From assembly GCF_026626745.1 (NCBI RefSeq), contig NZ_JAPNJW010000001.1:972311-1036310 (forward strand): a stretch of DNA of 64,000 nt. The letters are read 5' to 3'. The notes beneath the pieces were generated by a model. It saw only the letters and a list, made by a program, of their open reading frames with translations. It was not told where the DNA came from and did no database searches. Every line of letters starts with the position of its first letter. Within the stretch, counting starts at the first letter, position 1. The position numbers and the translations under genes are program-made. This DNA comes from Nannocystis sp. RBIL2 (lineage in GTDB: Bacteria > Myxococcota_A > Polyangia > Nannocystales > Nannocystaceae). Of this stretch, positions 2,173 to 42,492 are shown in pieces.

Positions 2173-2247
2173 CGGCCGAGCATGCCACGCACGTGCGCAG
2201 ACACGCAAGGCGGACGAGCGGCCCTTCGGCGGTGCTAGACTTCGGCC

Positions 2248-3033
2248 GTGGCCTCCCGCAAGCCCGCGCCCGCCGTCACGGAGCCGACCATCCGTGTCCG
2301 CCGGATCCACCGCCGCGACCTCAACAAGGTGTGGGAGTTCCTCAAGCGCGTGTTCCGCTCGGTCAACCGCGAGACCGTCGAGTACCAGCGCCCCCGCACC
2401 AAGACCCGCTTCCTCGAGATCTACGAGGAGGAGGGCATCGAGCAGCTGCTGTTCGAGATCCACGAGGGCGACGCCCCGGTGATCGTCGGCTACGCCGAGT
2501 GCGCCTACGAGGTCATCGGCTCCGACAATTGGATCAACGAGCGCTACTTCGAGAGCCGCGACATGCGCCCGCTGTTCGTCGAGGAGATCGCCATCCACCC
2601 CGACTTCCAGGGCCGCGGGATCGGCAGCTTCGTCATCGAGCAGCTCGAGCACCTCGCCCGCGTGCGCGGCTGCACGCACCTCGTCCTCGAGGTCGCCGCC
2701 AACAACAAGCGCGCGCTCCAGTTCTACCGCGCCCGCAGCTTCTCCCAGATCGACGCCGCCATCTTCCTGGCCAAGAAGGTCGTCAGCGAGCCCGAGCTGC
2801 TGCCGCCCCGCACCCTCCGCAACAGCGGCCTCGAGGCGGCCCCGTCCGACCCGCCCGAGGCCGGGCCCGAGCCCGAGGCCGAGGAGGGCTCCGAGGACAT
2901 GTCCGAAACGACAGGTGCGGAAGCACCGGACCTCGAGGACATGCCCGAAGAGGCAGACGAGCCCGAGCCCGAGCCCCCAGCGCCCCCGGCCAAGCCCGCC
3001 CGCGCCCGCCGCTCGCGCCCCCGCAAGGCCTGA
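2248..3033 (+). CDS. GNAT family N-acetyltransferase with acidic Pro-rich C-terminal tail
   Basis: Acetyl-CoA binding motif region IAIHPDFQGRGIGSFVIEQL; the C-tail EDMSETTGAEAPDLEDMPEE is encoded by partial copies of the GGACATGTCC element. Confidence 0.75.
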   Translation: MASRKPAPAVTEPTIRVRRIHRRDLNKVWEFLKRVFRSVNRETVEYQRPRTKTRFLEIYEEEGIEQLLFEIHEGDAPVIVGYAECAYEVIGSDNWINERYFESRDMRPLFVEEIAIHPDFQGRGIGSFVIEQLEHLARVRGCTHLVLEVAANNKRALQFYRARSFSQIDAAIFLAKKVVSEPELLPPRTLRNSGLEAAPSDPPEAGPEPEAEEGSEDMSETTGAEAPDLEDMPEEADEPEPEPPAPPAKPARARRSRPRKA

Positions 3034-4924: not shown

Positions 4925-4995
4925 GCGCATGTCTCCTCCGACATGCCCCATCCTTCATGCACTCGAGGACATGCTCGAACGAGCATGCTCCCTCA
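4925..4995. repeat. GGACATGTCC-family 14-bp phased array (5 units) between convergent genes
   Basis: CATG at 4927, 4942, 4956, 4970, 4984. Confidence 0.8.
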
Positions 4996-5448
4996 ACCTC
5001 GCCGCGGCACCACCGGTCCGACCGCGCGCACCCGCAGCGCGGTGAGCGGCGCCCCGCTGACGCGGTCGACCAGCACCGGCTCGATCGGCAGCCCCGTGGC
5101 GGCGTCCTCGAGCACTGTCGGCGGTGGGTCTTCGCGGGCGAACTCGTCGCCCCACTGCATCAGAGTCACGATCACCGGCCGCAGCCCCCGGCCCTTCGCC
5201 GTCGGCACGTACTCCTCGCGCGGCGGATGATCCTGATAGGACCGGCGCTCGAGGATTCCCGCGGCGACCAGGTGCTCCAGGCGGGCCGTCAACGTGGCCC
5301 GCGGGATCTGCAGCCGCGCCTGAAACGCCTCGAAGCGCGTCACCCCGAGCAGCGCGTCGCGCACGAGCAGCAGCGTCCACGGGTCACCGACGACGTCGAG
5401 CGCCCGCGCGATCGAGCACTGCATCCGGTCGAGTCGCTTGCGCCGCAC
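4993..5448 (-). CDS. HxlR family transcriptional regulator
   Basis: Winged-helix HxlR signature (ARALDVVGDPWTLLLVRD ... REEYVPTAKGRGL); the start may be the internal Met (MQCSIARAL, ~5424). Confidence 0.8.
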   Translation of the reverse strand: MRRKRLDRMQCSIARALDVVGDPWTLLLVRDALLGVTRFEAFQARLQIPRATLTARLEHLVAAGILERRSYQDHPPREEYVPTAKGRGLRPVIVTLMQWGDEFAREDPPPTVLEDAATGLPIEPVLVDRVSGAPLTALRVRAVGPVVPRRG

Positions 5449-5461
5449 GAGGCCCGTTGTA

Positions 5462-6838
5462 TCACGCCCGGGCCGGACCTGTCCGAAGGGGCAGCGAGCA
5501 CAGCGCGGTCGCCAAGCCGCCGGCGATCATCACCCACCACACCCGGTCGAACCGCGCCAGCGCGTCGGCCGGCCCGCTCGCCCCGGCAGTCAGCCCGATC
5601 GCCAGCGCCACCCCGAGCGTCCCCGCGAATTGGCGCAGCGCCTGGTGGACCGCCCCGCCGACCCCGAGGCGATTGGCCGGCAGCGCCTGGCCGACCACGC
5701 TCGACAGCTGCGGCAGGCACAGCGCCACCCCCGTCCCCGTCAGCAGCATCGACGGCAGATAGTCGATCGCGTAGTCGACCTCGGCCGACAGCATCAGCAG
5801 GCGCCACAGCCCTCCGAGCGCGAACGACAGCCCGCCGACGATAAGCAGCGGTCGCTGGCCGATCCGCGCCGCCAGCCGCCCGAACCGCGGTGACAGCACC
5901 GCCACCAGCAGCGGCCCGGGCGCCACGCCGAAGCCCGCCGCGAGGATCGACCAGTCCCACACCGCGGTGAGGAACAGGACGCTGGCCAGGAACATCGCAG
6001 TGAACGCCGCGCCGAACGTCAGCGTCGCCGCGTTGGCCCAGCGGAAGTTGCTCGCCGCGAACAGCGACAGATCGATCGTCGGCGCCCGCGTGCGCGCCTG
6101 ATGGAGCACGAACACCGCCAGGGTCGCCAGGCCGGCCACCAGAGTCGCCGCGGTCCGTTGCGACGTCCAGCCCCACGCCTCGCCGAGCACCAGCGCCAGA
6201 GTGATCAACACCGCCGCGAGCACCAGCAGCACCACCCCGAGCGGCGCCGGCAGCACGCTGTCGGGGTCGCGTGACTCGGCCAGTCGTCGGCGCCCGAGCA
6301 GCACGGTCACCAGCCCGACCGGCAGGTTGATGGCGAACACCCAGCGCCAGCCGCACGCCTCGATCAGCGCCGCGCCGAGCGTCGGCCCGACCGCCCCGGC
6401 CACCGCCCCCGTCGCGCCCCACACCGCCAGCGCCACCGGCAGCTTCTCGCGCGGCGTCGCCCGCATCACCAGCGCCAGCGACGAAGGCACCAGCGCCGCG
6501 CCGCCGGCCGCCTGCAGCACGCGCGCGGCCACCAGCAGCCCCGGAGTCGGCGCCGCCGCGCACAGCAGCGACGCCAGGGTGAATCCGATCGACCCGGCCA
6601 GGAACATCGCCCGATGCCCCCAGCGATCGGCGAGCCGCCCGAACGGCACCAGCGCGGCCGCGAACACGATCGTGTACGCGTTCAGCACCCACGACAGCTC
6701 GGCTGTCGGCACCGCCGGGAACGTCGCCGCGATCGACGGGAACGCCACGAACAGCACAGTCGTGTCGAGGAACACCGCGAACACGGCCAGGCTGGCCACG
6801 ACCAACGGGGACAGACGCATCTCCATGCGTTCAATCAT
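5462..6838 (-). CDS. MFS transporter, DHA2 (EmrB/QacA-like) family, 14 TM
   Basis: Typical MFS motifs (GRLADRWGHR, multiple TM helices). The ORF extends to 6898, but the likely start is MIERMEMRLSPL around 6838-6820. Confidence 0.8.
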   Translation of the reverse strand: MIERMEMRLSPLVVASLAVFAVFLDTTVLFVAFPSIAATFPAVPTAELSWVLNAYTIVFAAALVPFGRLADRWGHRAMFLAGSIGFTLASLLCAAAPTPGLLVAARVLQAAGGAALVPSSLALVMRATPREKLPVALAVWGATGAVAGAVGPTLGAALIEACGWRWVFAINLPVGLVTVLLGRRRLAESRDPDSVLPAPLGVVLLVLAAVLITLALVLGEAWGWTSQRTAATLVAGLATLAVFVLHQARTRAPTIDLSLFAASNFRWANAATLTFGAAFTAMFLASVLFLTAVWDWSILAAGFGVAPGPLLVAVLSPRFGRLAARIGQRPLLIVGGLSFALGGLWRLLMLSAEVDYAIDYLPSMLLTGTGVALCLPQLSSVVGQALPANRLGVGGAVHQALRQFAGTLGVALAIGLTAGASGPADALARFDRVWWVMIAGGLATALCSLPLRTGPARA

Positions 6839-8291: not shown

Positions 8292-9293
8292 ATGCGCGCT
8301 CCGCTCCGACCGGTCCCGCCGCGCCCGCGGTTCGGCGCCCTCGTCCGCCTGCTCGTCGCCTGCCTCGGCTTGCTGCTCGTCACCTGCGGCCGCCAGCAGG
8401 ACTCGCAGCAGGTGCGGATCGCCCTCAACTGGTTCCCCGAGGTCGAGCACGGCGGCTACTTCGCCGCCCTCGTCCACGGCTACTACAAGGAAGAGGGCCT
8501 CGACGTCGAGCTCGTGCCCGGGCGGCCCGACGCCCCGGTCCTGCCGCAGGTGGCCGCGGGTCGCGTCCAGTTCGGCATCGCCGACGCCAGCGAGATCCTG
8601 CTCGCGCGGGCCCAGGGCGCCCCGGTGGTCGCGCTCGTCCCCGGCCTGCAGAAGAGCCCGCGCTGCATGATGGTCCACGAGGCCTCGGGCATCACCGACC
8701 TCAACGACCTCCAGACCGGCAGCGTGCAGCTGAGCGTGCGCGAGCCGTTCGCCAGCTTCCTGCGCGCCGAGTATCGCTGGCCCGAGGCGGTCCAGGTCGT
8801 CCCCTACAGCGGCAGCGTCGCCCCGTTCCTGCTCGACCCCAAGGCCGTCCAGCAGGCCTACGTCTTCAGCGAGCCGATCATCGCCGAGTCGCAGGGCGCC
8901 AAGGTCCGCTGCATCCTCGTCGCCGACCTCGGCTTCAACCCCTACGCCAGCGTCCTCGTCACCTCCGAGTCGCTGCTGGCGAGCCGCCCCGAGCTGGTCG
9001 CCCGCGTCGTCGACGCGACCCTGCGCGGGTGGGAGCAGTACCTGCGCGACCCGAGCGCCGCCAACGCCGAGATCCGCGCCCGCAACACCGAGCTCAGCCC
9101 CGAGATCCTGGCCAAGGGCGCCGCCGCCCTCAAGCCGCTGGCGGCCCCCGAAGGCGGCACGATCGGCGCGATCGACCCGGCCCGCTGGAAGACGCTCGCC
9201 GATCAGCTCGTCGACCTCGGCCTCCTGAAGGCCGGCGCCGTCGACCCGGCCACCGCCTACAACCTCGAGATCGGCCGCAAGCCGGCGAAGTAG
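8292..9293 (+). CDS. ABC transporter substrate-binding protein (NMT1/THI5-like, SsuA/ThiY-type) with signal peptide
   Basis: ATG at 8292 gives MRAPLRP...LLVACLGLLLVTCG with a signal/lipobox; NMT1-like periplasmic domain. The ORF track start at 8202 lies inside a repeat array and is unlikely. Confidence 0.8.
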   Translation: MRAPLRPVPPRPRFGALVRLLVACLGLLLVTCGRQQDSQQVRIALNWFPEVEHGGYFAALVHGYYKEEGLDVELVPGRPDAPVLPQVAAGRVQFGIADASEILLARAQGAPVVALVPGLQKSPRCMMVHEASGITDLNDLQTGSVQLSVREPFASFLRAEYRWPEAVQVVPYSGSVAPFLLDPKAVQQAYVFSEPIIAESQGAKVRCILVADLGFNPYASVLVTSESLLASRPELVARVVDATLRGWEQYLRDPSAANAEIRARNTELSPEILAKGAAALKPLAAPEGGTIGAIDPARWKTLADQLVDLGLLKAGAVDPATAYNLEIGRKPAK

Positions 9294-9304
9294 CCGCCGG
9301 ACCC

Positions 9305-9362
9305 TTCGGGCATGCTCCGAGCGACATGTCCTGCAGGACATTTCTTTAAAGACATGCCCGAT
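9305..9362. repeat. GGACATGTCC-family 14-bp phased array (4 units) downstream of SBP gene
   Basis: CATG at 9311, 9325, (CATT 9339), 9353; ATGTCCtgcaGGACAT; AT-rich spacer ttctttaaaga. Confidence 0.8.
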
Positions 9363-9609
9363 CGTTGTCCACGCCGAGAGCTGCCAGATCCTCGCGCGCG
9401 CCGCCGCCCTCCTGATCGCCATCCACCTCGACCCCCTGGCCGTCATCCGCGGTTTGCCCGCGGCCGCCGTCGTCCCGCCCCGGGCCTTGCCGCACGACCT
9501 GTCCTCAGGGACAGCTTCGAGCCCGCCGCCCCGCCCACGCGGCCGCGCGACCCCCTCGTCCACACGCCGGCCCGCGCGGCCGCGACCTTCGCCGGCCGGC
9601 AGTTGACGA
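9361..9609 (+). pseudogene. Truncated duplicate of an internal segment of the downstream gene 9653..11014
   Basis: Positions 9368-9480 are ~90% identical to 9928-10040. Translation gives ...SCQILARAAALLIAIHLDPLAVIRGLP..., matching ...SCPILARAAALLIAIHLDPLAVARGLP... downstream. It starts directly at the edge of repeat array 9305-9362 and has no start codon. Confidence 0.35.
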
Positions 9610-9652
9610 CCCCCGCCTGCCCGGACACGATCACCCGGGCCAGGACTCTCGC

Positions 9653-11014
9653 TTGCTCGCCCTCGCCGCGCTGGTGTTCGTTCGCCTCTCGTCCGCCGCG
9701 CCGCCGGTCGCCGCGCCGCCGGTCGACCTGACCTGGCAGGCCCCGCGCGAGTGCCCCGACGGCGACGACGTCCTGCTCATGGTCGCCGGCCTGCTGCGTC
9801 AGCCGACCGGCGACGACGCGCCAGGTCGCCCCGGCGCCCGCGGGCTCATCACCCGCGCCGGCGCGGCATGGGAGCTGCGGCTCGTGCTGCGCGGGCGGGG
9901 CAGCGACTACCGTCGCACCGTCCGTGCCGAGAGCTGCCCGATCCTCGCGCGCGCCGCCGCCCTCCTGATCGCCATCCACCTCGACCCCCTGGCCGTCGCT
10001 CGCGGTTTGCCCGCGCCCGCCGTCGTCCCGCCCGCGCCCCCGGCCCTGCCGCCCGACCTGTCCCCGGGGACAGCCACGATCCCACCGCCGGGCCCCTCCG
10101 ATCTGTCCCCGCGGACATCTGCGACCTCCGCGTCCGGTACGGCCCCGCCCGCCGACCTGTCCTCGCGGACATCCACGACCTCCGCGTCCGGTACGGCCCC
10201 GCCCACCGACCTGTCCTCGCGGACATCCAGCGCTCCGCCGTCCGAGCTACCCGCGCGGCCGGTCCTGCCGCCTGACCCGCTCGCGTCCGACCCGTCTCGC
10301 GCCCCCTCGATCCCCGCCGCTCCCGACCTGTCCTTCCGGCCAGCCCCGCCTCCCTCCCCCGCAGGTCGGCTCGCCTCGCCCGCGCCCCCGCGACCGCCCG
10401 CCGGCCCGTCGCGCCCGCTCGCCCCCGAGGACATGTCCGAAGAGACAGCAGAGTTCACCGCCGCGCGAACGCCCCGGCCAGCCGCACCGCCGCGCGTGCT
10501 CGGCCACCTCCGCCTCGAAGGCGGCCTCGACGTCGGCGTCCTCCCTGGCGCCGGGGGCCTCGTCGGCCTGTTCGGCGGCGTCACCTTGCCGCGCCTGCGC
10601 CTCGAGGCCGGCCTCGTCGGCGCGCCTGGCCGGATCCTCCCCGGCCTCAGCGACCGCCCCGGCGGCCGCTTCGACCGCCTCGGCGGGGTCGTGCGGATCT
10701 GTCCGACCTGGCTCCCGCGCCCGGCGCTCGCCGTCCTGCTGTGCGCCGGCTTCGAGGTCGGCGCGCTCCACGGCGTCGCCCGCGACGTCAGCGTCCCGAG
10801 CCCGCGCTGGGCCCCGTGGGCCAGCTTCTTCCTCGGCCCCGCGCTGCGCTGGCGGGTCGCCGGCCCGCTCGGCCTGTGGCTGGCCGTCGAGGGCCTCGTG
10901 GCCGTCAACCGCCCGATCTTCACCGTCGGCGCTGAAGAGGTGTACCGCGGCGGCCGCGCGGGCCTGCGCACCACTTTCGGCCTCGACCTGCAATTCGGGC
11001 CACGGAATCGCTGA
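9653..11014 (+). CDS. Hypothetical secreted Pro/Ser-rich protein with 18-aa tandem repeats
   Basis: TTG start followed by a signal-peptide-like N-terminus; contains 54-bp tandem repeats (DLSPRTSATSASGTAPPA x ~3); the C-terminal part has non-junk composition. Confidence 0.5.
   Translation: MLALAALVFVRLSSAAPPVAAPPVDLTWQAPRECPDGDDVLLMVAGLLRQPTGDDAPGRPGARGLITRAGAAWELRLVLRGRGSDYRRTVRAESCPILARAAALLIAIHLDPLAVARGLPAPAVVPPAPPALPPDLSPGTATIPPPGPSDLSPRTSATSASGTAPPADLSSRTSTTSASGTAPPTDLSSRTSSAPPSELPARPVLPPDPLASDPSRAPSIPAAPDLSFRPAPPPSPAGRLASPAPPRPPAGPSRPLAPEDMSEETAEFTAARTPRPAAPPRVLGHLRLEGGLDVGVLPGAGGLVGLFGGVTLPRLRLEAGLVGAPGRILPGLSDRPGGRFDRLGGVVRICPTWLPRPALAVLLCAGFEVGALHGVARDVSVPSPRWAPWASFFLGPALRWRVAGPLGLWLAVEGLVAVNRPIFTVGAEEVYRGGRAGLRTTFGLDLQFGPRNR
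10100..10235 (+). repeat. 54-bp tandem coding repeats (x2.5), each beginning with a CTGTCCnnnnGGACAT element copy
   Basis: gatctgtccccgcggacatctgcgacctccgcgtccggtacggccccgcccgcc / gacctgtcctcgcggacatccacgacctccgcgtccggtacggccccgcccacc / gacctgtcctcgcggacatccagcgc...; further single copies at 10055 and 10325. Confidence 0.75.
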
Positions 11015-11035
11015 CCCGCGGAGACAGACCCGATC

Positions 11036-12238
11036 GTGCCGCTCCCCCAGGAAGCACTCCCCGACTTCGCCGCCGTCTACCGCGCGAACTACGGCTTCGT
11101 CTGGCGCACCATCCGGCACCTCGGCGTCGATCTGGCGCGGGTCGACGACGCGGTCCAGGACACCTTCCTGGTCGTCTACCGCCGCCTGCCCGAGTTCGCC
11201 GGGCGTGCCGCGGTGCGCACCTGGTTGTTCGAGATCGCGCGGCGCATCGCCAGCCGTTACCGGCGCAGCGCCGCGCGCGAGGAGCCGCGCCGCTGCGCTT
11301 TGAGCGAGGCCGAGGTCCTCGCCCCCGCGGTCGAGGCCCCCGTGGAGCAGGCCGAGGCCGCCGCGCTCCTCCAGGGCTTCCTCGACGGCCTCGACCGCGA
11401 TCAGGCCGTCGTCTTCGTCATGACCGAGCTCGAGCAGTGGCAGGCCCCCGAGATCGCCGCCGAGCTCGGCGTCAACCTCAACACCGTCTACTCGCGCCTG
11501 CGCGCCGCTCGCCGCGAGCTCGACCGCATGGTCCGCCGCCTCGACGCCCGCGACCGCCGGGCCCGGCCGCGCCAGGGCGCCCACGTGCTCGCCGCCCTGG
11601 TCGTGGTCGGCCCGCCCTGGCCGCCGCCGTGGCGCCTGGCCGCCGCGCGCGATCCGGCTGTCGTCGGGGACATGCTCGCAAAGACATGGTCGATAAGCCA
11701 TGTCGCAACGCCGGCCGCGATCGCCGGCGGCAGCCCGGTCGTCGGCCTCTCGGTCGCCAGCGCCGGCCTCTTCGCAGTGCTGGCGTTCGGCCGCCCTGCA
11801 CCCGAGCCGCCGCAGTCGGTCGTCGCCGCGGCCCACGAGCCCGCGCCCGCTCAGTCGCACTCGCCACCGCAGTCGGTCGCGCTCGCGGCCGCAGCCGCAC
11901 CGATCCCGCCCGCCTCCGCCACGGCCGCTCCCCCCGCGCCCGCGCGACGCTCGACCCCTCGCGGCGAGGAGCCCTCGCTGGCCGCCGAGCTCACCCTCGT
12001 CGAGTCGATCCGCGCCGCCCTGCTCGCCGCCGACCACCGCACCACCCTCGAGCTGGTCGCCCGCCACCAGCGGCGCTTCCCCGCCGGCGTGTTCGCCCAG
12101 GAGACCGCCGCCGCCGCCATCGAGGCCCGCTGCCGCCTCGGCGACCACGACCGCGCCCGCCGCGACGCCGCCGCGTTCGTCGCCCGCTGGCCCGCCTCCG
12201 CCCTGGCCCCGCGGGTGTCCGCGTTGTGCCGCTCGTGA
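11036..12238 (+). CDS. ECF (sigma-70 family) RNA polymerase sigma factor, fused in-frame to an anti-sigma-like extension
   Basis: Sigma region 2 (DAVQDTFLVVYRRL, RTWLFEIARR) and region 4 (TELEQWQAPEIAAELGVNLNTVYSRLRAAR) lie in the first ~175 aa. After that, with no stop, come a predicted TM helix (SPVVGLSVASAGLFAVLAF) and an Ala/Pro-rich tail. A repeat element copy sits at the junction (11665-11710). Confidence 0.65.
   Translation: MPLPQEALPDFAAVYRANYGFVWRTIRHLGVDLARVDDAVQDTFLVVYRRLPEFAGRAAVRTWLFEIARRIASRYRRSAAREEPRRCALSEAEVLAPAVEAPVEQAEAAALLQGFLDGLDRDQAVVFVMTELEQWQAPEIAAELGVNLNTVYSRLRAARRELDRMVRRLDARDRRARPRQGAHVLAALVVVGPPWPPPWRLAAARDPAVVGDMLAKTWSISHVATPAAIAGGSPVVGLSVASAGLFAVLAFGRPAPEPPQSVVAAAHEPAPAQSHSPPQSVALAAAAAPIPPASATAAPPAPARRSTPRGEEPSLAAELTLVESIRAALLAADHRTTLELVARHQRRFPAGVFAQETAAAAIEARCRLGDHDRARRDAAAFVARWPASALAPRVSALCRS
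11665..11710. repeat. GGACATGTCC-family phased array (3 units) inside ECF sigma-fusion ORF
   Basis: CATG at 11671, 11685, 11699. Confidence 0.65.
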
Positions 12239-12271
12239 GCGCGGCGCTCCGTGGCCCGCGACGCGGTCTCG

Positions 12272-12395
12272 GCCGACCTGTCCCTTGCGACCTGTCCATT
12301 CATATCATGTCTGAAGGGACACCCGTCCCTCCAGACATCTCATCCCACGACCGGCGCCACGCGACCTCGCCTTGCATGTCCCTGCGGACAGGCAC
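12272..12395. repeat. Degenerate GGACATGTCC/CCTGTCC-family array in the sigma / FG-GAP intergenic region
   Basis: gaCCTGTCCcttgcgaCCTGTCCattcatatCATGTCTgaagGGACAcccgtccctccagaCATCTCatcc ... gCATGTCCctgcGGACAGG. Confidence 0.65.
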
Positions 12396-12586
12396 GGTCG
12401 CTGCTGCCGCCGCCTCCGCGGCGAAGGGACGAAGCGCTGCAGAGACGTCCAGCGTCGACATCGCCACCTCGCGCCGGCGAGCACGCCGTGACGCGCGCGA
12501 AGACCTCGCCCACCGCCGCATCGAAGGCGCGAAGATCGGCGAACGGAACCTCGGGCCCCGAGGCACTCACTCGCTGAAAGGCCACC

Positions 12587-14219: not shown

Positions 14220-14292
14220 AAGGACATGTCGGACAGGGCATGTCGATAGAGACATGCCCGAATCGACATGTCCCCATCGACATGCCCTCGAG
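14220..14292. repeat. GGACATGTCC-family 14-bp phased array (5 units) abutting the SNF2 stop codon
   Basis: CATG at 14225, 14239, 14253, 14267, 14281, exactly 14 bp apart. Confidence 0.85.
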
Positions 14293-29633: not shown

Positions 29634-29705
29634 TTGGGGCGGTAGGATTCGAACCTACGAATGGCGGAACCAAAAACCGCTGGCTTACCACTTGCCGACG
29701 CCCCA
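29634..29705 (-). tRNA. tRNA-Gln (anticodon TTG)
   Basis: Manual fold: acceptor UGGGGCG/CGCCCCA, T-arm GTAGG-TTCGAAT-CCTAC, anticodon loop UUUUGGU (UUG). Closely parallels E. coli tRNA-Gln. No encoded CCA. It sits in the conserved tRNA-Gln/prs/rplY/pth neighbourhood. Confidence 0.8.
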
Positions 29706-29714
29706 GAATTTGTT

Positions 29715-29770
29715 CGGCCCGGTGAGGCCGGGCCCTGCAGGTCCCGAAGGACTGGGCCCGAAGGACTGGG
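29715..29770. repeat. 15-bp tandem repeat (GGGCCCGAAGGACTG x ~2.5) upstream of tRNA-Gln
   Basis: ...gtcccgaaggactgggcccgaaggactgggcccgaagaattgccc; preceded by the hairpin ggcccggtgaggccgggcc (29710-29728). Confidence 0.5.
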
Positions 29771-30204
29771 CCCGAAGAATTGCCCGTGCTCTGGGGATCG
29801 CAGGAACGCCCCCCAGGGCGCGCGCTTTATAGGATTAGCCCAAAGGCGCTGTCAACCGTCCCACCAGCGCCGAACCCGACATCCGGGCGCAGGGGCCACG
29901 TCGGACGGGTCACACGGCGGCGTCTCGCGGCGGCACCTCGCGGCGGCACCTCTTCTGGCGCCTCCTGCGCCTGCCCCTGACGACCTGGTCTGAGGGCCCG
30001 GCGGATGGTGCGGTGAATTGGGGGTCCGAGGCCCGGTCCCGCGTCGCGGACGTCCGGCGAATCTCGTGAGTTCTCTTGCTCGGCAGCGGGGCACAACTCG
30101 GGTGGGATCGTGGGTCTGGGGCCCGTGCGAGGGTCCCGCTTTGTCCCACAGCCACCTTTACCCGTGTGCTAGGTTGCGGGCCTCGCAGGAGACGACCAAT
30201 TCCC

Positions 30205-41438: not shown

Positions 41439-41581
41439 ATTCGGCGCCCGCAAGCGCTCCCCGCCTCCGAGATGTCTCGAAGGACACCTTCTTGTCACCT
41501 GTCCTCCGGGACAGGCCCGCCAGCGCGCGGTTCCGGCAATCGTCCCCGCCCGCCGGGAGTCCGATACCGAGGGTCTCCACG

Positions 41582-41956: not shown

Positions 41957-42019
41957 CAGCGCGCCTGTCGCCGTGAGCCGGGACGCTGGACCGGCTTCAT
42001 CCGGCTCGCGGCCTGGGTT

Positions 42020-42409
42020 ATGAAAGGGAACCGAGTCCGCGACATGCATCAGCAAGAGACCTGTGTGGCGGTGCGCGACGTCCTGAGCCGCGTCGGCGAC
42101 AAGTGGAGCGTCCTCGTGGTCAGCATGCTGAGCGACCGACCGCTGCGCTTCAACGAGCTGCGGCGGTCGATCGAGGGCATCTCGCAGCGCATGCTGACGC
42201 TGACGCTCCGCGGCCTCGAGCGCGACGGCCTGGTCACCCGCACCGTCACCCCTTCCGTCCCGCCGCGCGTCGACTACGAGCTGACCGAGCTCGGCCGCAC
42301 CCTGCTCGACCCGGTCCAAGCCCTCGCCGCCTGGGCCGGCGACCACCGCGGCGAGATCGCCCGCGCCCGCGAGCGCTTCGACCGCAAGGACCCGCCCCGG
42401 CAAGATTGA
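42020..42409 (+). CDS. HxlR family transcriptional regulator
   Basis: [27 protein letters not shown]...[15 protein letters not shown] signature. Confidence 0.8.
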
Positions 42410-42419
42410 CTTGATAGCG

Positions 42420-42492
42420 AGTGTCCAAATGGACATGTTTGAATCAGCATGTCCATCCGGACATTTCTGAAAGGACATGTCCCGATCCGCAG
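42420..42492. repeat. GGACATGTCC-family 14-bp phased array (4-5 units) downstream of HxlR
   Basis: CATG at 42434, 42448, (CATT 42462), 42476; ATGTCCatccGGACAT; AT-rich spacers. Confidence 0.85.

Follow-up and report, generated by a model that had tools for sequence, protein, structure and literature searches.

The window analyzed here, a stretch of 64,000 nucleotides from the genome of Nannocystis sp. RBIL2, contains a gene for an envelope protein (OV090_03920) that is followed after 22 nucleotides by a gene for an ECF sigma factor, and this adjacency is constant across all orthologous loci. Palindromic repeats flank the gene pair and are also present within both reading frames. The features of the region are as follows.

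9322-9363, no strand assigned: intergenic array with a 14-bp period, three units, 29 nucleotides past the stop codon of an upstream NMT1/SsuA-like gene
9367-9536, + strand: RBIL2-specific partial duplicate (pseudo-fragment) of codons 90-148 of OV090_03920 (repeat families D3/D4, blastn)
9653-11014, + strand: envelope protein gene OV090_03920, 453 aa, TTG start (open reading frame list, GC3 frame plot, homologues, AlphaFold2)
9710-10006, + strand: N-terminal β-α-β-β-β-α domain, residues 20-118, with conserved Cys34 and Cys95
10010-10498, + strand: disordered Pro/Ser/Thr/Ala-rich linker, residues ~120-282 (~160 aa), with all six dyad units inside (pLDDT, orthologue comparison)
10055-10075, + strand: dyad unit 1, single, GACCTGTCCCCGGGGACAGCC (DLSPGTA), with a positional orthologue in close relatives
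10094-10244, + strand: tandem 54-bp array, 2.8 copies, unit starts at 10100, 10154, and 10208 (Tandem Repeats Finder, repeat family D2)
10325-10345, + strand: degenerate single dyad unit, GACCTGTCCTTCCGGCCAGCC (DLSFRPA)
10427-10449, + strand: sixth unit, GAGGACATGTCCGAAGAGACAGC (EDMSEETA), with the full GGACATGTCC palindrome
10499-10996, + strand: C-terminal small outer-membrane β-barrel, residues 283-448, ending in ...GLDLQF-GPRNR (AlphaFold2, Foldseek)
11036-12238, + strand: ECF sigma factor gene with a long C-terminal extension (Pfam Sigma70_r2/r4_2, TIGR02937)
11655-11712, + strand: second in-frame element copy, in the sigma factor linker, about three clear 14-bp units (core 11668-11705)
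12268-12400, no strand assigned: intergenic element copies past the sigma factor stop codon, two of GACCTGTCC at 12275 and 12289 and a dyad at 12377

The reading frame at 9653-11014 has the composition of a real gene, with a GC content of ~0.9 at codon position 3 and 0.55-0.65 at position 2, a signal that is fainter in the repeat zone; its product matches a deposited Nannocystis sp. RBIL2 protein with 100% identity, and 17 homologues were found. The protein comprises, in order, a signal-peptide-like N terminus, an α/β domain, the disordered linker that carries the repeats, and a C-terminal OmpA/OmpX-like β-barrel. In the AlphaFold2 model, linker residues 122-276 have pLDDT values below 50 and the barrel domain is all-β with values of 89-98; among orthologues the linker is hypervariable in both sequence and length. 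Foldseek matches of the barrel are the OmpA transmembrane domain (probability 1.00, TMt 0.73-0.76), NspA, OmpX, Ail, OprF-N, and OmpW. The C-terminal 165 residues can be superimposed on barrels of the OmpA/OmpX/NspA types (TMt up to 0.76) and share their aromatic C-terminal motif, but here the barrel is C-terminal, preceded by an additional N-terminal domain and a long linker, and the family is uncharacterized and encoded beside an ECF sigma factor. No family matched the protein at E ≤ 0.1 in either the Pfam or the NCBIfam library, and an STN-like (FecA-type) signaling domain is absent from its matches. The protein family includes 8461 representatives at E ≤ 1e-3, mostly of 300-420 residues and with two matched stretches, and its distant members mostly have plain Pro-rich linkers that lack the dyad motif. 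The architecture of N-terminal domain and barrel is ancient and widespread; an origin of the linker by gene fusion across a former intergenic array was rejected, because the two domains are ancient and the linkers mostly plain and Pro-rich. In outer-membrane proteins, a linker that is N-terminal to such a barrel is periplasmic. Because the barrel lies C-terminal to the linker in the model, this topology would most likely place the repeats in the periplasm, away from the cell surface.

Tandem Repeats Finder assigns to 10094-10244 a period of 54 with 2.8 copies, 89% matches, and a score of 230, which confirms the tandem units (~2.5 copies) and the single unit starts at 10055 and 10325 that had been described in a sequence-only reading of this DNA. 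Each 54-bp unit consists of a 21-nt dyad core and a 33-nt tail coding for Ser, Thr, Ala, and Pro, and opens with GAC-CTGTCC-N4-GGACA. The DNA at the unit starts is GATCTGTCCCCGCGGACATC at 10100 and GACCTGTCCTCGCGGACATCC at 10154 and 10208, and the tandem units are translated as DLSPRTSATSASGTAPPA, DLSSRTSTTSASGTAPPT, and DLSSRTS.... The rare Pro codon CCA of the degenerate unit at 10325 is preserved in the corresponding unit of orthologues as deep as L007. The last unit, overlooked in the earlier reading, starts at 10430 with GACATGTCCGAAGAGACAGC, which encodes DMSEET; L002, L003, L008, and L009 have the same DNA core there, down to the rare codons GAA and ACA. The general in-frame core is GAC-(C/A)TGTCC-N4-GGACA-(T/G)CC, read as D-(L/M)-S-x-(R/G)-T-(S/A). 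CTGTCCNNNNGGACA with up to one mismatch has 62 strand-hits in the window, where 1.48 are expected and 100 shuffles gave at most 5; GACCTGTCC has 10 matches as compared with 0.58 expected. Also overlooked was the partial duplicate in the upstream spacer, which is 86% identical to the gene over 176 nucleotides (blastn), is out of frame relative to it, and ends right after a dyad of its own at 9496-9516 (...HDLSSGTAS...). The equivalent sequence upstream of the gene in L001-L005 and L008 contains no such duplicate.

The dyad of the reading frame is, as had been claimed, the same as that of the intergenic arrays, and its relationship to them can be refined. Between genes, a palindrome of 10 bp, GGACATGTCC (variant GGACCTGTCC), recurs with a 14-bp period, and the array consensus is GGRCATGYCC followed by a variable 4-nt spacer; spacings between palindromes in the window are 14 (14 cases), 28 (9), 42 (8), and 56 (3). 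The dyad TGTCC-N4-GGACA corresponds to the junction between two adjacent 10-bp palindromes. Arrays with this period are present in most intergenic regions, and across 715 kb of Nannocystis DNA, 185 of the 218 perfect dyads are non-coding. From crude gene calls, about half of 21 arrays lie 7-36 nucleotides from the 3' end of a gene, those at 14222, 42431, and 55176 lie in apparently convergent spacers, and coding dyads occupy all three frames (18/11/4), so that a single fixed frame is rejected. The position of the array at 9322-9363 is also occupied by arrays in L001 and L002. Matches to ACATGTCC-N4-GGACATGT among genomes fall in Nannocystis or Nannocystaceae in 83 of 105 cases, and the arrays are largely restricted to the Nannocystaceae. 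Two further in-frame copies occur in the window. The copy in the sigma factor linker encodes GDMLAKTWSISHVAT with rare codons and seemingly arose in place, with the length of the gene unchanged, not by insertion; the other is in the tail of a GNAT protein at 2893-2960. In the envelope protein, the sigma factor, and the GNAT tail alike, the element is read through without stops and the conserved domains are retained. The 715 kb yielded L042 and L053 as candidates for further tandem D[LM]SxxT arrays in frame, but neither is a convincing gene, and a search of 5.8 billion proteins with the linker peptide for unrelated carriers of the repeat returned only a truncated orthologue.

The predicted folding of intergenic arrays is strong (-39.5 and -53 kcal/mol; z -7.1 and -8.6), with stems of 10-13 bp. 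Single coding dyads have stems of 5-6 bp and -6 to -9 kcal/mol (z about -0.6 to -1.1), which is not significant. An RNA or cruciform hairpin as the cause of the conservation in the reading frame was rejected, as the predicted fold of the 201-nt repeat zone is no more stable than those of shuffled sequences (z -0.6) and as the variants among 53 distinct in-frame units are one-sided, with no compensatory double change.

Codon usage distinguishes conservation of the DNA from conservation of the peptide. In the window, ACA accounts for 3.2% of Thr codons, TCC for 13% of Ser, GAA for 6.4% of Glu, and CCA for 2.2% of Pro. The Thr of the motif is nevertheless encoded by ACA in 44 of 52 units from eight orthologues, as compared with 2 of the 150 Thr residues elsewhere in the same genes, although the units are not 52 independent observations, since those within a genome share recent duplication. 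A logo of 64 units has low information in the 4-nt spacer and frequencies in the right arm of.97 for G,.86 for A,.98 for C, and.91 for the final A, which occupies the third position of a codon; by comparison, the structured regions of these genes retain A- or T-ending codons at conserved residues in just 12-27% of cases at similar divergence. Since the rare ACA, TCC, and CCA codons stand exactly at the sites that the dyad requires, the DNA motif and not the peptide is what the linker has in common with the intergenic arrays. These codons support the earlier claim that the element is built into coding sequence and, judged from them, the nucleotide motif rather than the peptide is the conserved entity in the linker repeats. 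The core is retained in orthologues that have the repeats, and only L006 has undergone partial decay, with ACA changed to ACC in five of seven units. The deep-branching metagenome-assembled genome L115 (21 kb, of which 1.4 kb is intergenic) shows no intergenic arrays in this sequence, yet its orthologue holds five ACA dyads; therefore the coding dyads may persist independently of the dispersed family or predate its expansion.

The number and length of units vary among orthologues and close relatives, as the sequence-only reading had anticipated. Tandem DLSxRTS units number three in the window and in L001, two in L004, six in L002, and five to six in L009. Successive dyads are spaced by 45, 54, and 54 bp in the window, by 45, 54, 54, 54, 39, and 45 bp in L002, by 45, 54, 85, 48, and 39 bp in L009, and by 45 and 48 bp in L004. 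Units are 36 bp long in L003, 39 bp in L005, and 27 or 48 bp in L007. Relatives that differ in unit number (two to six in tandem) and unit length (39-54 bp) have flanking domains that are 91-96% identical (one assembly per strain). Each unit holds one dyad, and shortened tails end at the dyad that follows. L009 carries one expansion of very recent date (48 bp, 2.6 copies, 98% identity). All unit lengths (27, 36, 39, 45, 48, and 54 bp) are multiples of three, the exception being the frameshifted 85-bp spacing in L009, and therefore a change in copy number cannot turn the gene on or off. Two Nannocystis pusilla assemblies (Na p29 and JBMEQO01) have alleles with frameshifts in or near the array, one of which stops the protein at 248 residues; that of L009 is in a C-rich homopolymer stretch, which is typical of assembly error. 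The N. pusilla frameshifts could be assembly errors and do not count as evidence of switching.

Several known systems share some of these properties. REPs and RPEs are interspersed palindromes that are mainly intergenic and near 3' ends, including those of convergent genes, and that occasionally lie in frame within genes, where proteins that are otherwise conserved gain tens of residues from them (PMC3733652). The Nannocystis element is likewise mainly intergenic and near 3' ends, downstream of genes between unidirectional and convergent reading frames, and sometimes in frame, with copies in three functional-looking proteins, as for RPEs. Its intergenic arrays are high-copy palindromes predicted to form stable stem-loops, as in REPs, and the coding copies keep 5-6 bp of stem. 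However, its core is 10 bp at a 14-bp period, as compared with 20-40 bp for REPs and ~100-150 bp for elements of the RPE families, it matches no Rfam family, and its unit lacks the GTAG or CGTC tag that defines REPs (PMC3733652). No Y1 transposase was found among ten small open reading frames of the window scanned against Pfam. It also differs in that one element junction became the seed of a tandem coding repeat, and in that the sigma factor array apparently formed in place at constant length rather than by insertion. PARCELs are variable-number tandem protein repeats whose coding DNA has dyad symmetry, often in membrane-targeted proteins (PMC2996958), but they are structured amphipathic repeats of 25 residues that have spread horizontally and are unrelated to an intergenic element family. 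In Nannocystis, the units have 9-18 residues, are disordered, and have a core that also occurs in non-coding arrays.

The array fits the description of a coding VNTR or minisatellite, in that its units are head-to-tail and in frame and their copy number is polymorphic among related genomes. As in the VNTRs of envelope protein linkers, the units are Pro/Ser/Thr-rich, tens of bp long, and variable in number, and the repeat is tolerated because the region is unstructured. Ordinary VNTRs show no conservation beyond common descent, whereas here a dyad of 14 positions, including the third positions of rare codons, is shared across lineages with different unit lengths. HIP1 of cyanobacteria is an 8-bp perfect palindrome that is scattered singly and largely within genes; the Nannocystis palindrome resembles it in being short, perfect, and vastly over-represented in a single lineage, within genes as well as outside them, but occurs in arrays with a 14-bp period and is strongly intergenic.

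We consider it slightly better than evenly probable that the linker repeats are a coding minisatellite, in frame, whose units are built on copies of a palindromic element that is interspersed in this lineage and specific to it. One junction of two palindromes sits in frame within the linker, a disordered segment of an envelope protein with two conserved domains, and the 21-nt core, together with a tail of 18-33 nucleotides coding for Ser, Thr, Ala, and Pro, has been repeatedly duplicated and trimmed to give lineage-specific copy numbers and unit lengths. The rare codons required by the dyad are retained while the 4-nt spacer and the tails drift. Copy number may be altered by unequal recombination or replication slippage between units, and the dyad may itself be a cause of duplication. 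The linker would act as an unstructured periplasmic tether that joins the N-terminal domain to the outer-membrane barrel and, because of this character, would tolerate the gain or loss of units; the tether is probably part of a module for envelope signaling that includes the ECF sigma factor encoded next to it. The dyad may be held by upkeep of the element throughout the genome, through sequence-specific recognition or biased conversion, and not by the peptide. A phase-variation switch would have no part in this scheme.

A different explanation, which we regard as unlikely, is that the dyads are selected cis-acting sites of the operon formed by the envelope protein and ECF sigma factor genes, for example an operator array for a winged-helix (PadR-type) dimer that acts as a transcriptional roadblock or regulator, the peptide repeat being a by-product in a tolerant linker. 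The canonical PadR operator is the inverted repeat ATGT-N8-10-ACAT (PMC3506622), and ATGTCC-N4-GGACAT conforms to it as ATGT-N8-ACAT, although DLS-type units carry CTGT in the left half. The exact 20-mer ACATGTCC-N4-GGACATGT adjoins a PadR gene in all eight actinomycete matches, in Kribbella, Nocardia, and Amycolatopsis. The rare codons survive deep divergence, both in L115, where no dispersed arrays are visible, and in another deep lineage (as ACA TCT), the arm bases are conserved without compensatory change, which favors base-specific recognition over a hairpin, and the neighborhood with the sigma factor is invariant. PadR operators number one or two per regulon, whereas the Nannocystis arrays number in the hundreds and mostly are not beside any regulator gene; with a motif this common, nothing is specific to this operon. 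The dyads of the linker are 0.6-1 kb upstream of the sigma factor start. Searches of the window and of 650 kb of Nannocystis loci with phmmer found no PadR homologue, and the two adjacent winged-helix genes are of the HxlR family, not PadR. In addition, ACA has decayed in L006, and the motif is missing from most of the distant members of the protein family.

That the protein is a contingency-locus-like surface protein, as the earlier reading had proposed, with the palindrome driving frequent changes in repeat number and hence phase or antigenic variation, appears very unlikely. The unequal copy number among close relatives, the very recent expansion in L009, and the frameshifts in two N. pusilla assemblies are consistent with it, but the copies are few (two to six in tandem) and, apart from the frameshifted spacing, which is in an error-prone homopolymer, the units of 27-54 bp are divisible by three and are not the 1-9-nt units of contingency loci that shift a frame or promoter spacing. 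The coding hairpins are weak and the predicted topology places the repeats in a periplasmic linker. It is also highly improbable that D-L-S-x-R/G-T-S/A is a short linear motif selected in the protein for modification, cleavage, or binding, and that its likeness to the DNA element is incidental. The peptide is recognizable in orthologues down to ~40% identity and in some distant members (DLSQGTA/DLAPGTA in P0074 and ELSEGTA in P0020), and its left arm (L/M-S) is more conserved than the right. Selection on the peptide cannot, however, account for ACA, TCC, CCA, and GAA exactly at dyad positions, the identical DNA core is found again in unrelated genes and non-coding arrays, and the residues over the DNA spacer vary freely.

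Beyond the minisatellite that we favor, a joint reading, to which we attach a rather low probability, would combine arrays that are an undescribed class of interspersed repeat renewed in place with linker dyads that are selected nucleic acid sites. The arrays could spread or be renewed through conversion, or through selection for a binding site, instead of by insertion, and the dyads could be, for example, putative operators recognized by a PadR-like protein with a winged helix or by some other sequence-specific factor. Were both parts true, the repeat region would have a dual use, and the protein repeat would be the translated shadow of a DNA signal.

In-frame palindromic repeats as such are already known from the RPEs of Rickettsia and from intragenic REPs. 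The present family of elements, and the fact that it has long been retained in a single linker, appear to be undescribed so far: the literature on palindromic, repetitive, or intergenic repeats of Nannocystis and on GGACATGTCC yielded no description of the element, and Rfam searches of the whole window (gathering thresholds) and of 9200-12500 (E ≤ 1) yielded only a tRNA and a chance miRNA match. The genomes of the Nannocystaceae, which exceed 11 Mb and are mined for natural products, hold an abundant, apparently undescribed, lineage-specific repeat family that is able to enter the reading frames of envelope and regulatory proteins. The linker provides a natural case in which codon choice separates conservation at the level of DNA from that at the level of protein inside a protein repeat, corrects a tempting interpretation of such repeats as antigenic variation, and suggests that the peptide D-L-S-x-R-T owes its existence to the retention of a genomic palindrome. 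If the dyad is a binding site or a recombination hotspot, this would bear on assembly and annotation, since two deposited orthologues are frameshifted exactly there, and on how palindromes are maintained and disordered linkers grow.

The product of the reading frame at 9653..11014 (+) matches hypothetical protein OV090_03920 (Nannocystis sp. RBIL2) at 100% identity, and no Pfam or NCBIfam family matched it. The codon-position GC profile of the frame supports coding in this window of 71.6% G+C, position 3 being close to 0.9 and position 2 being 0.55–0.65 to either side of the repeat zone; the contrast drops inside the zone, as expected for a Pro/Ser-rich stretch. The tandem 54-bp units described in the sequence-only reading were recovered by Tandem Repeats Finder at 10094–10244 (2.8 copies, 89% matches, score 230; translations DLSPRTSATSASGTAPPA, DLSSRTSTTSASGTAPPT and DLSSRTS...), and the isolated unit starts that it placed at 10055 and 10325 are both present. 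An additional sixth unit that it missed lies at 10430 (GACATGTCCGAAGAGACAGC, peptide DMSEET). The dyad within these units, TGTCC-N4-GGACA, is far more frequent in the window than expected by chance: CTGTCCNNNNGGACA with up to one mismatch has 62 strand-hits, where 1.48 would be expected and 100 shuffles gave at most 5, and GACCTGTCC occurs 10 times against 0.58 expected.

Out of frame with the ORF, a partial copy of its codons 90–148 occupies 9367–9536 in the spacer 5' of it; the copy aligns to 9920–10095 along 176 nt at 86%, with 94% for the first 114 nt. This duplicate is directly 3' of an intergenic array and terminates just past its own dyad (HDLSSGTAS); no counterpart was found in the matching upstream regions of the orthologous loci L001–L005 and L008. 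It has the look of a footprint left when this locus recombined in the RBIL2 lineage.

The predicted protein comprises a confident N-terminal β-α-β-β-β-α domain (residues 20–118; AlphaFold2 with a 15-sequence alignment), a linker without confident structure (residues ~120–280) and a confident all-β C-terminal domain (residues 283–448). In Foldseek the C-terminal domain matched the OmpA transmembrane domain (TMt 0.73–0.76), NspA, OmpX, Ail, OprF-N and OmpW, and the N-domain by itself gave generic fold matches only. Read by eye, the N terminus, MLALAALVFVRLSSA with the break before AP, looks like a signal peptide lacking a charged n-region. Both ends of OmpA-type small barrels are on the periplasmic side, and from this topology the linker and N-domain should be periplasmic. 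About 22 nt after the ORF is a gene for an ECF sigma factor with a long C-terminal extension, followed by one for an FG-GAP protein, an order kept in every locus long enough to reveal it. A profile search returned 8461 representatives at E≤1e-3 (249 at E≤1e-30), mostly of 300–420 aa and with the N-domain and barrel matched separately; the N-domain plus small barrel is a large uncharacterized family that has no Pfam or NCBIfam model. Sampled distant members have mostly plain Pro-rich linkers, with motif-like peptides in a few (such as P0074 and P0020). The architecture is therefore old, and the expanded linker with dyads characterizes the Nannocystis-related branch.

The 10-bp palindrome GGACATGTCC (≤2 mismatches) has 83 matches in the window against ~29 in Markov controls, and the spacings among them peak at 14, 28, 42 and 56 bp, with nearly none between. 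The arrays comprise 2–5 units of (G)GRCATGYCC plus a 4-nt variable spacer in a 14-nt register, and GGACCTGTCC is a second flavour of the palindrome. Given this register, TGTCC-N4-GGACA is the junction of two adjacent palindromes. With gene ends taken from crude GC3-based calls, about half of the 21 arrays in the window are 7–36 nt past a stop codon, some of these in apparently convergent spacers; of the 218 perfect dyads present in 715 kb from Nannocystis, 185 are non-coding by crude calls. Folded as RNA, two intergenic arrays form very stable hairpins (-39.5 kcal/mol with z -7.1, and -53 kcal/mol with z -8.6). When a single genome from each of 185,579 species was scanned for the 20-mer ACATGTCC-N4-GGACATGT, at least 105 stretches matched, and among the 105 matches listed 83 are from Nannocystis or Nannocystaceae. 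Rfam holds no family matching the element and no description was found in the literature searched; the element family appears to be undescribed. The Nannocystaceae MAG BC1.173 (locus L006) carries it at lower density, and at L006:8676-8873 there is a direct repeat of ~100 bp in two copies, each with CATGTCC-N4-GGACAG. Another repeat in the window has the element's period and a different core:

29634-29705, minus strand: tRNA gene
29743-29777: perfect 14-bp tandem repeat, 2.5 copies (CCCGAAGGACTGGG), in the divergent spacer adjoining the tRNA gene

Copies of the element also lie in frame in two other genes:

11036..12238, ECF sigma factor gene: about three 14-bp units within 11655-11712 (core 11668-11705)
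2239..3033, GNAT acetyltransferase gene: copies 42 bp apart in the C-terminal tail, 2893-2960

The sigma-gene units are read in frames 2, 1 and 0 (peptide GDMLAKTWSISHVAT) and use the rare codons GCA, ACA, ATA and CAT. This array is kept in Nannocystis orthologues and is absent, with length unchanged, in L006 and the deep orthologue L007, which suggests an origin in situ, not through insertion. The GNAT copies encode EDMSETT...EDMPEEAD beyond the acetyltransferase domain, and their DNA is closely like that of the EDMSEET unit of the ORF. The element can therefore reside within reading frames in the RBIL2 genome, as REPs and RPEs do elsewhere (PMC3733652).

Orthologue DNA was compared at eight further loci, seven of which were used for codon counts; L004 was excluded because its linker is frameshifted. 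Units of the form D-(L/M)-S-x-x-T occur in the linker of every orthologue compared. Thr at motif position 6 is encoded by ACA in 44 of 52 units, as against 2 of 150 other Thr codons in the same eight genes, although such counts are not independent, units within one genome being recent duplicates; the ACA signal recurs among lineages with different expanded unit lengths. In the window genes, ACA accounts for 3.2% of Thr, TCC for 13% of Ser, GAA for 6.4% of Glu and CCA for 2.2% of Pro codons. When 64 units are anchored on the left arm, the right arm is G.97, A.86, C.98 and A.91 (this final A is a third codon position), and the 4-nt spacer and the tails are low in information. The background, taken from conserved residues in structured parts of the ORF and sigma gene, is retention of RBIL2 A/T-ending codons at 19% in L003, 27% in L008, 25% in L005, 12% in L006 and 18% in L007. 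The core of the EDMSEET unit has identical DNA in five lineages, GAA and ACA included, and the rare CCA of the degenerate unit DLSxRP is retained at the corresponding unit from RBIL2 through L007. L006 shows decay at this position, 5 of its 7 units having ACC in place of ACA. Rare-codon retention and arm conservation together indicate that the conserved object is the nucleotide dyad and the peptide a consequence; across long divergence, the rare codons give clear evidence that it is nucleotides rather than residues that have been kept. The earlier proposals that the ORF shares its dyad with the intergenic arrays, and that the element is built into coding sequence, are thus borne out.

Coding dyads have stems of 5–6 bp (-6 to -9 kcal/mol, z -0.6 to -1.1), and the whole 201-nt repeat zone has a folding z of -0.6. 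Among 63 in-frame units (53 distinct), gathered without demanding both arms, perfect units number 31, and 19 carry a single mismatch, in the right arm only; no pair has a compensatory double change. A selected stem-loop is unsupported given these weak hairpins and zero compensatory double changes, and the pattern fits either recognition of specific bases or an inherited motif that decays on one side. All eight actinomycete matches to the 20-mer (L021:1042, L031:6766, L050:1008/1039, L052:2684, L111:2981, L027:6261, L065:6450 and L068:6222; five Kribbella, two Nocardia and one Amycolatopsis) directly adjoin a PadR-family gene, often with the 20-mer doubled, and an SDR-like ORF is on the other side in L021 and L027, the two loci examined. 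There the 20-mer is presumably the operator of the adjoining regulator. The canonical PadR operator is ATGT-N8-ACAT (PMC3506622), which the dyad equals. No homologue of the actinomycete PadR was found in the window or the Nannocystis loci; two HxlR-family winged-helix genes in the window have adjoining dyads, and PadR/HxlR-type recognition is a lead only:

4993..5526, minus strand: HxlR-family gene, element dyad at or near its end at 5476-5494
41957..42409, plus strand: HxlR-family gene, element dyads at or near its ends at 41473/41500 and 42418-42492

Dyad-to-dyad spacings in RBIL2 and orthologous loci

RBIL2: 45, 54, 54, 117, 105 bp
L001: 54, 54, 126, 105 bp; an extra first unit with CTA escaped the pattern
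L002: 45, 54, 54, 54, 39, 45, 117, 105 bp
L004 (N. pusilla JBMEQO01): 45, 48, 126, 105 bp
L009 (N. pusilla Na p29): 45, 54, 85, 48, 39, 126, 96 bp
L003: mainly 36 bp
L005: 39 bp
L007: 27/48 bp

The flanking domains of L001, L002, L004 and L009 are 91–96% identical to those of RBIL2. Each unit comprises a 21-nt core (GACCTGTCC-N4-GGACATCC) and a tail, which is 18, 24, 27 or 33 nt long. All tails are shortened forms of one sequence, and each stops at the next core. The 48-bp expansion in L009 (2.6 copies, 98% identity) is very recent. All spacings are divisible by three except the 85 bp of L009 (L009:3499-3584), a unit with a damaged left arm and a C-rich homopolymer run, which shifts the frame and gives a truncated 248-aa product; because of the homopolymer context, a real mutation and an assembly error are both possible. 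At L004:3001-4305 the linker and part of the N-domain are read in other frames, and the two genes may be either real pseudogenes or assembly errors. The predicted variation in the repeats is thus seen in spacing, copy number and the period itself (36, 39 and 27/48 bp besides 54 bp); a contingency-type surface antigen is unsupported, and the dyad as the cause of the variation is unproven.

In L115, a deep-branching MAG locus, the orthologue retains five dyads with ACA though the 1.4 kb of spacer in 21 kb around it has zero intergenic arrays. The orthologue in L116, another deep locus, has two copies of DLAPETS (GAC CTG GCC CCC GAG ACA TCT). With the pattern in L006, these leave coding dyads strongly tied to the dispersed arrays in Nannocystis, a tie not proven to be ancestral. 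Locus-specific selection on the coding dyads is a live rival to descent from the dispersed element. At L115:4862-4885, a perfect dyad, GACCTGTCCCCGCGGACAGC, underlies the peptide PDDLSPRTA of a GBBH/TauD-like gene. An in-frame palindromic interspersed repeat and a coding VNTR in a linker are kinds already known. What is new is that one junction of an apparently undescribed element family seeded a coding minisatellite, with rare codons as the evidence that its nucleotides were retained.
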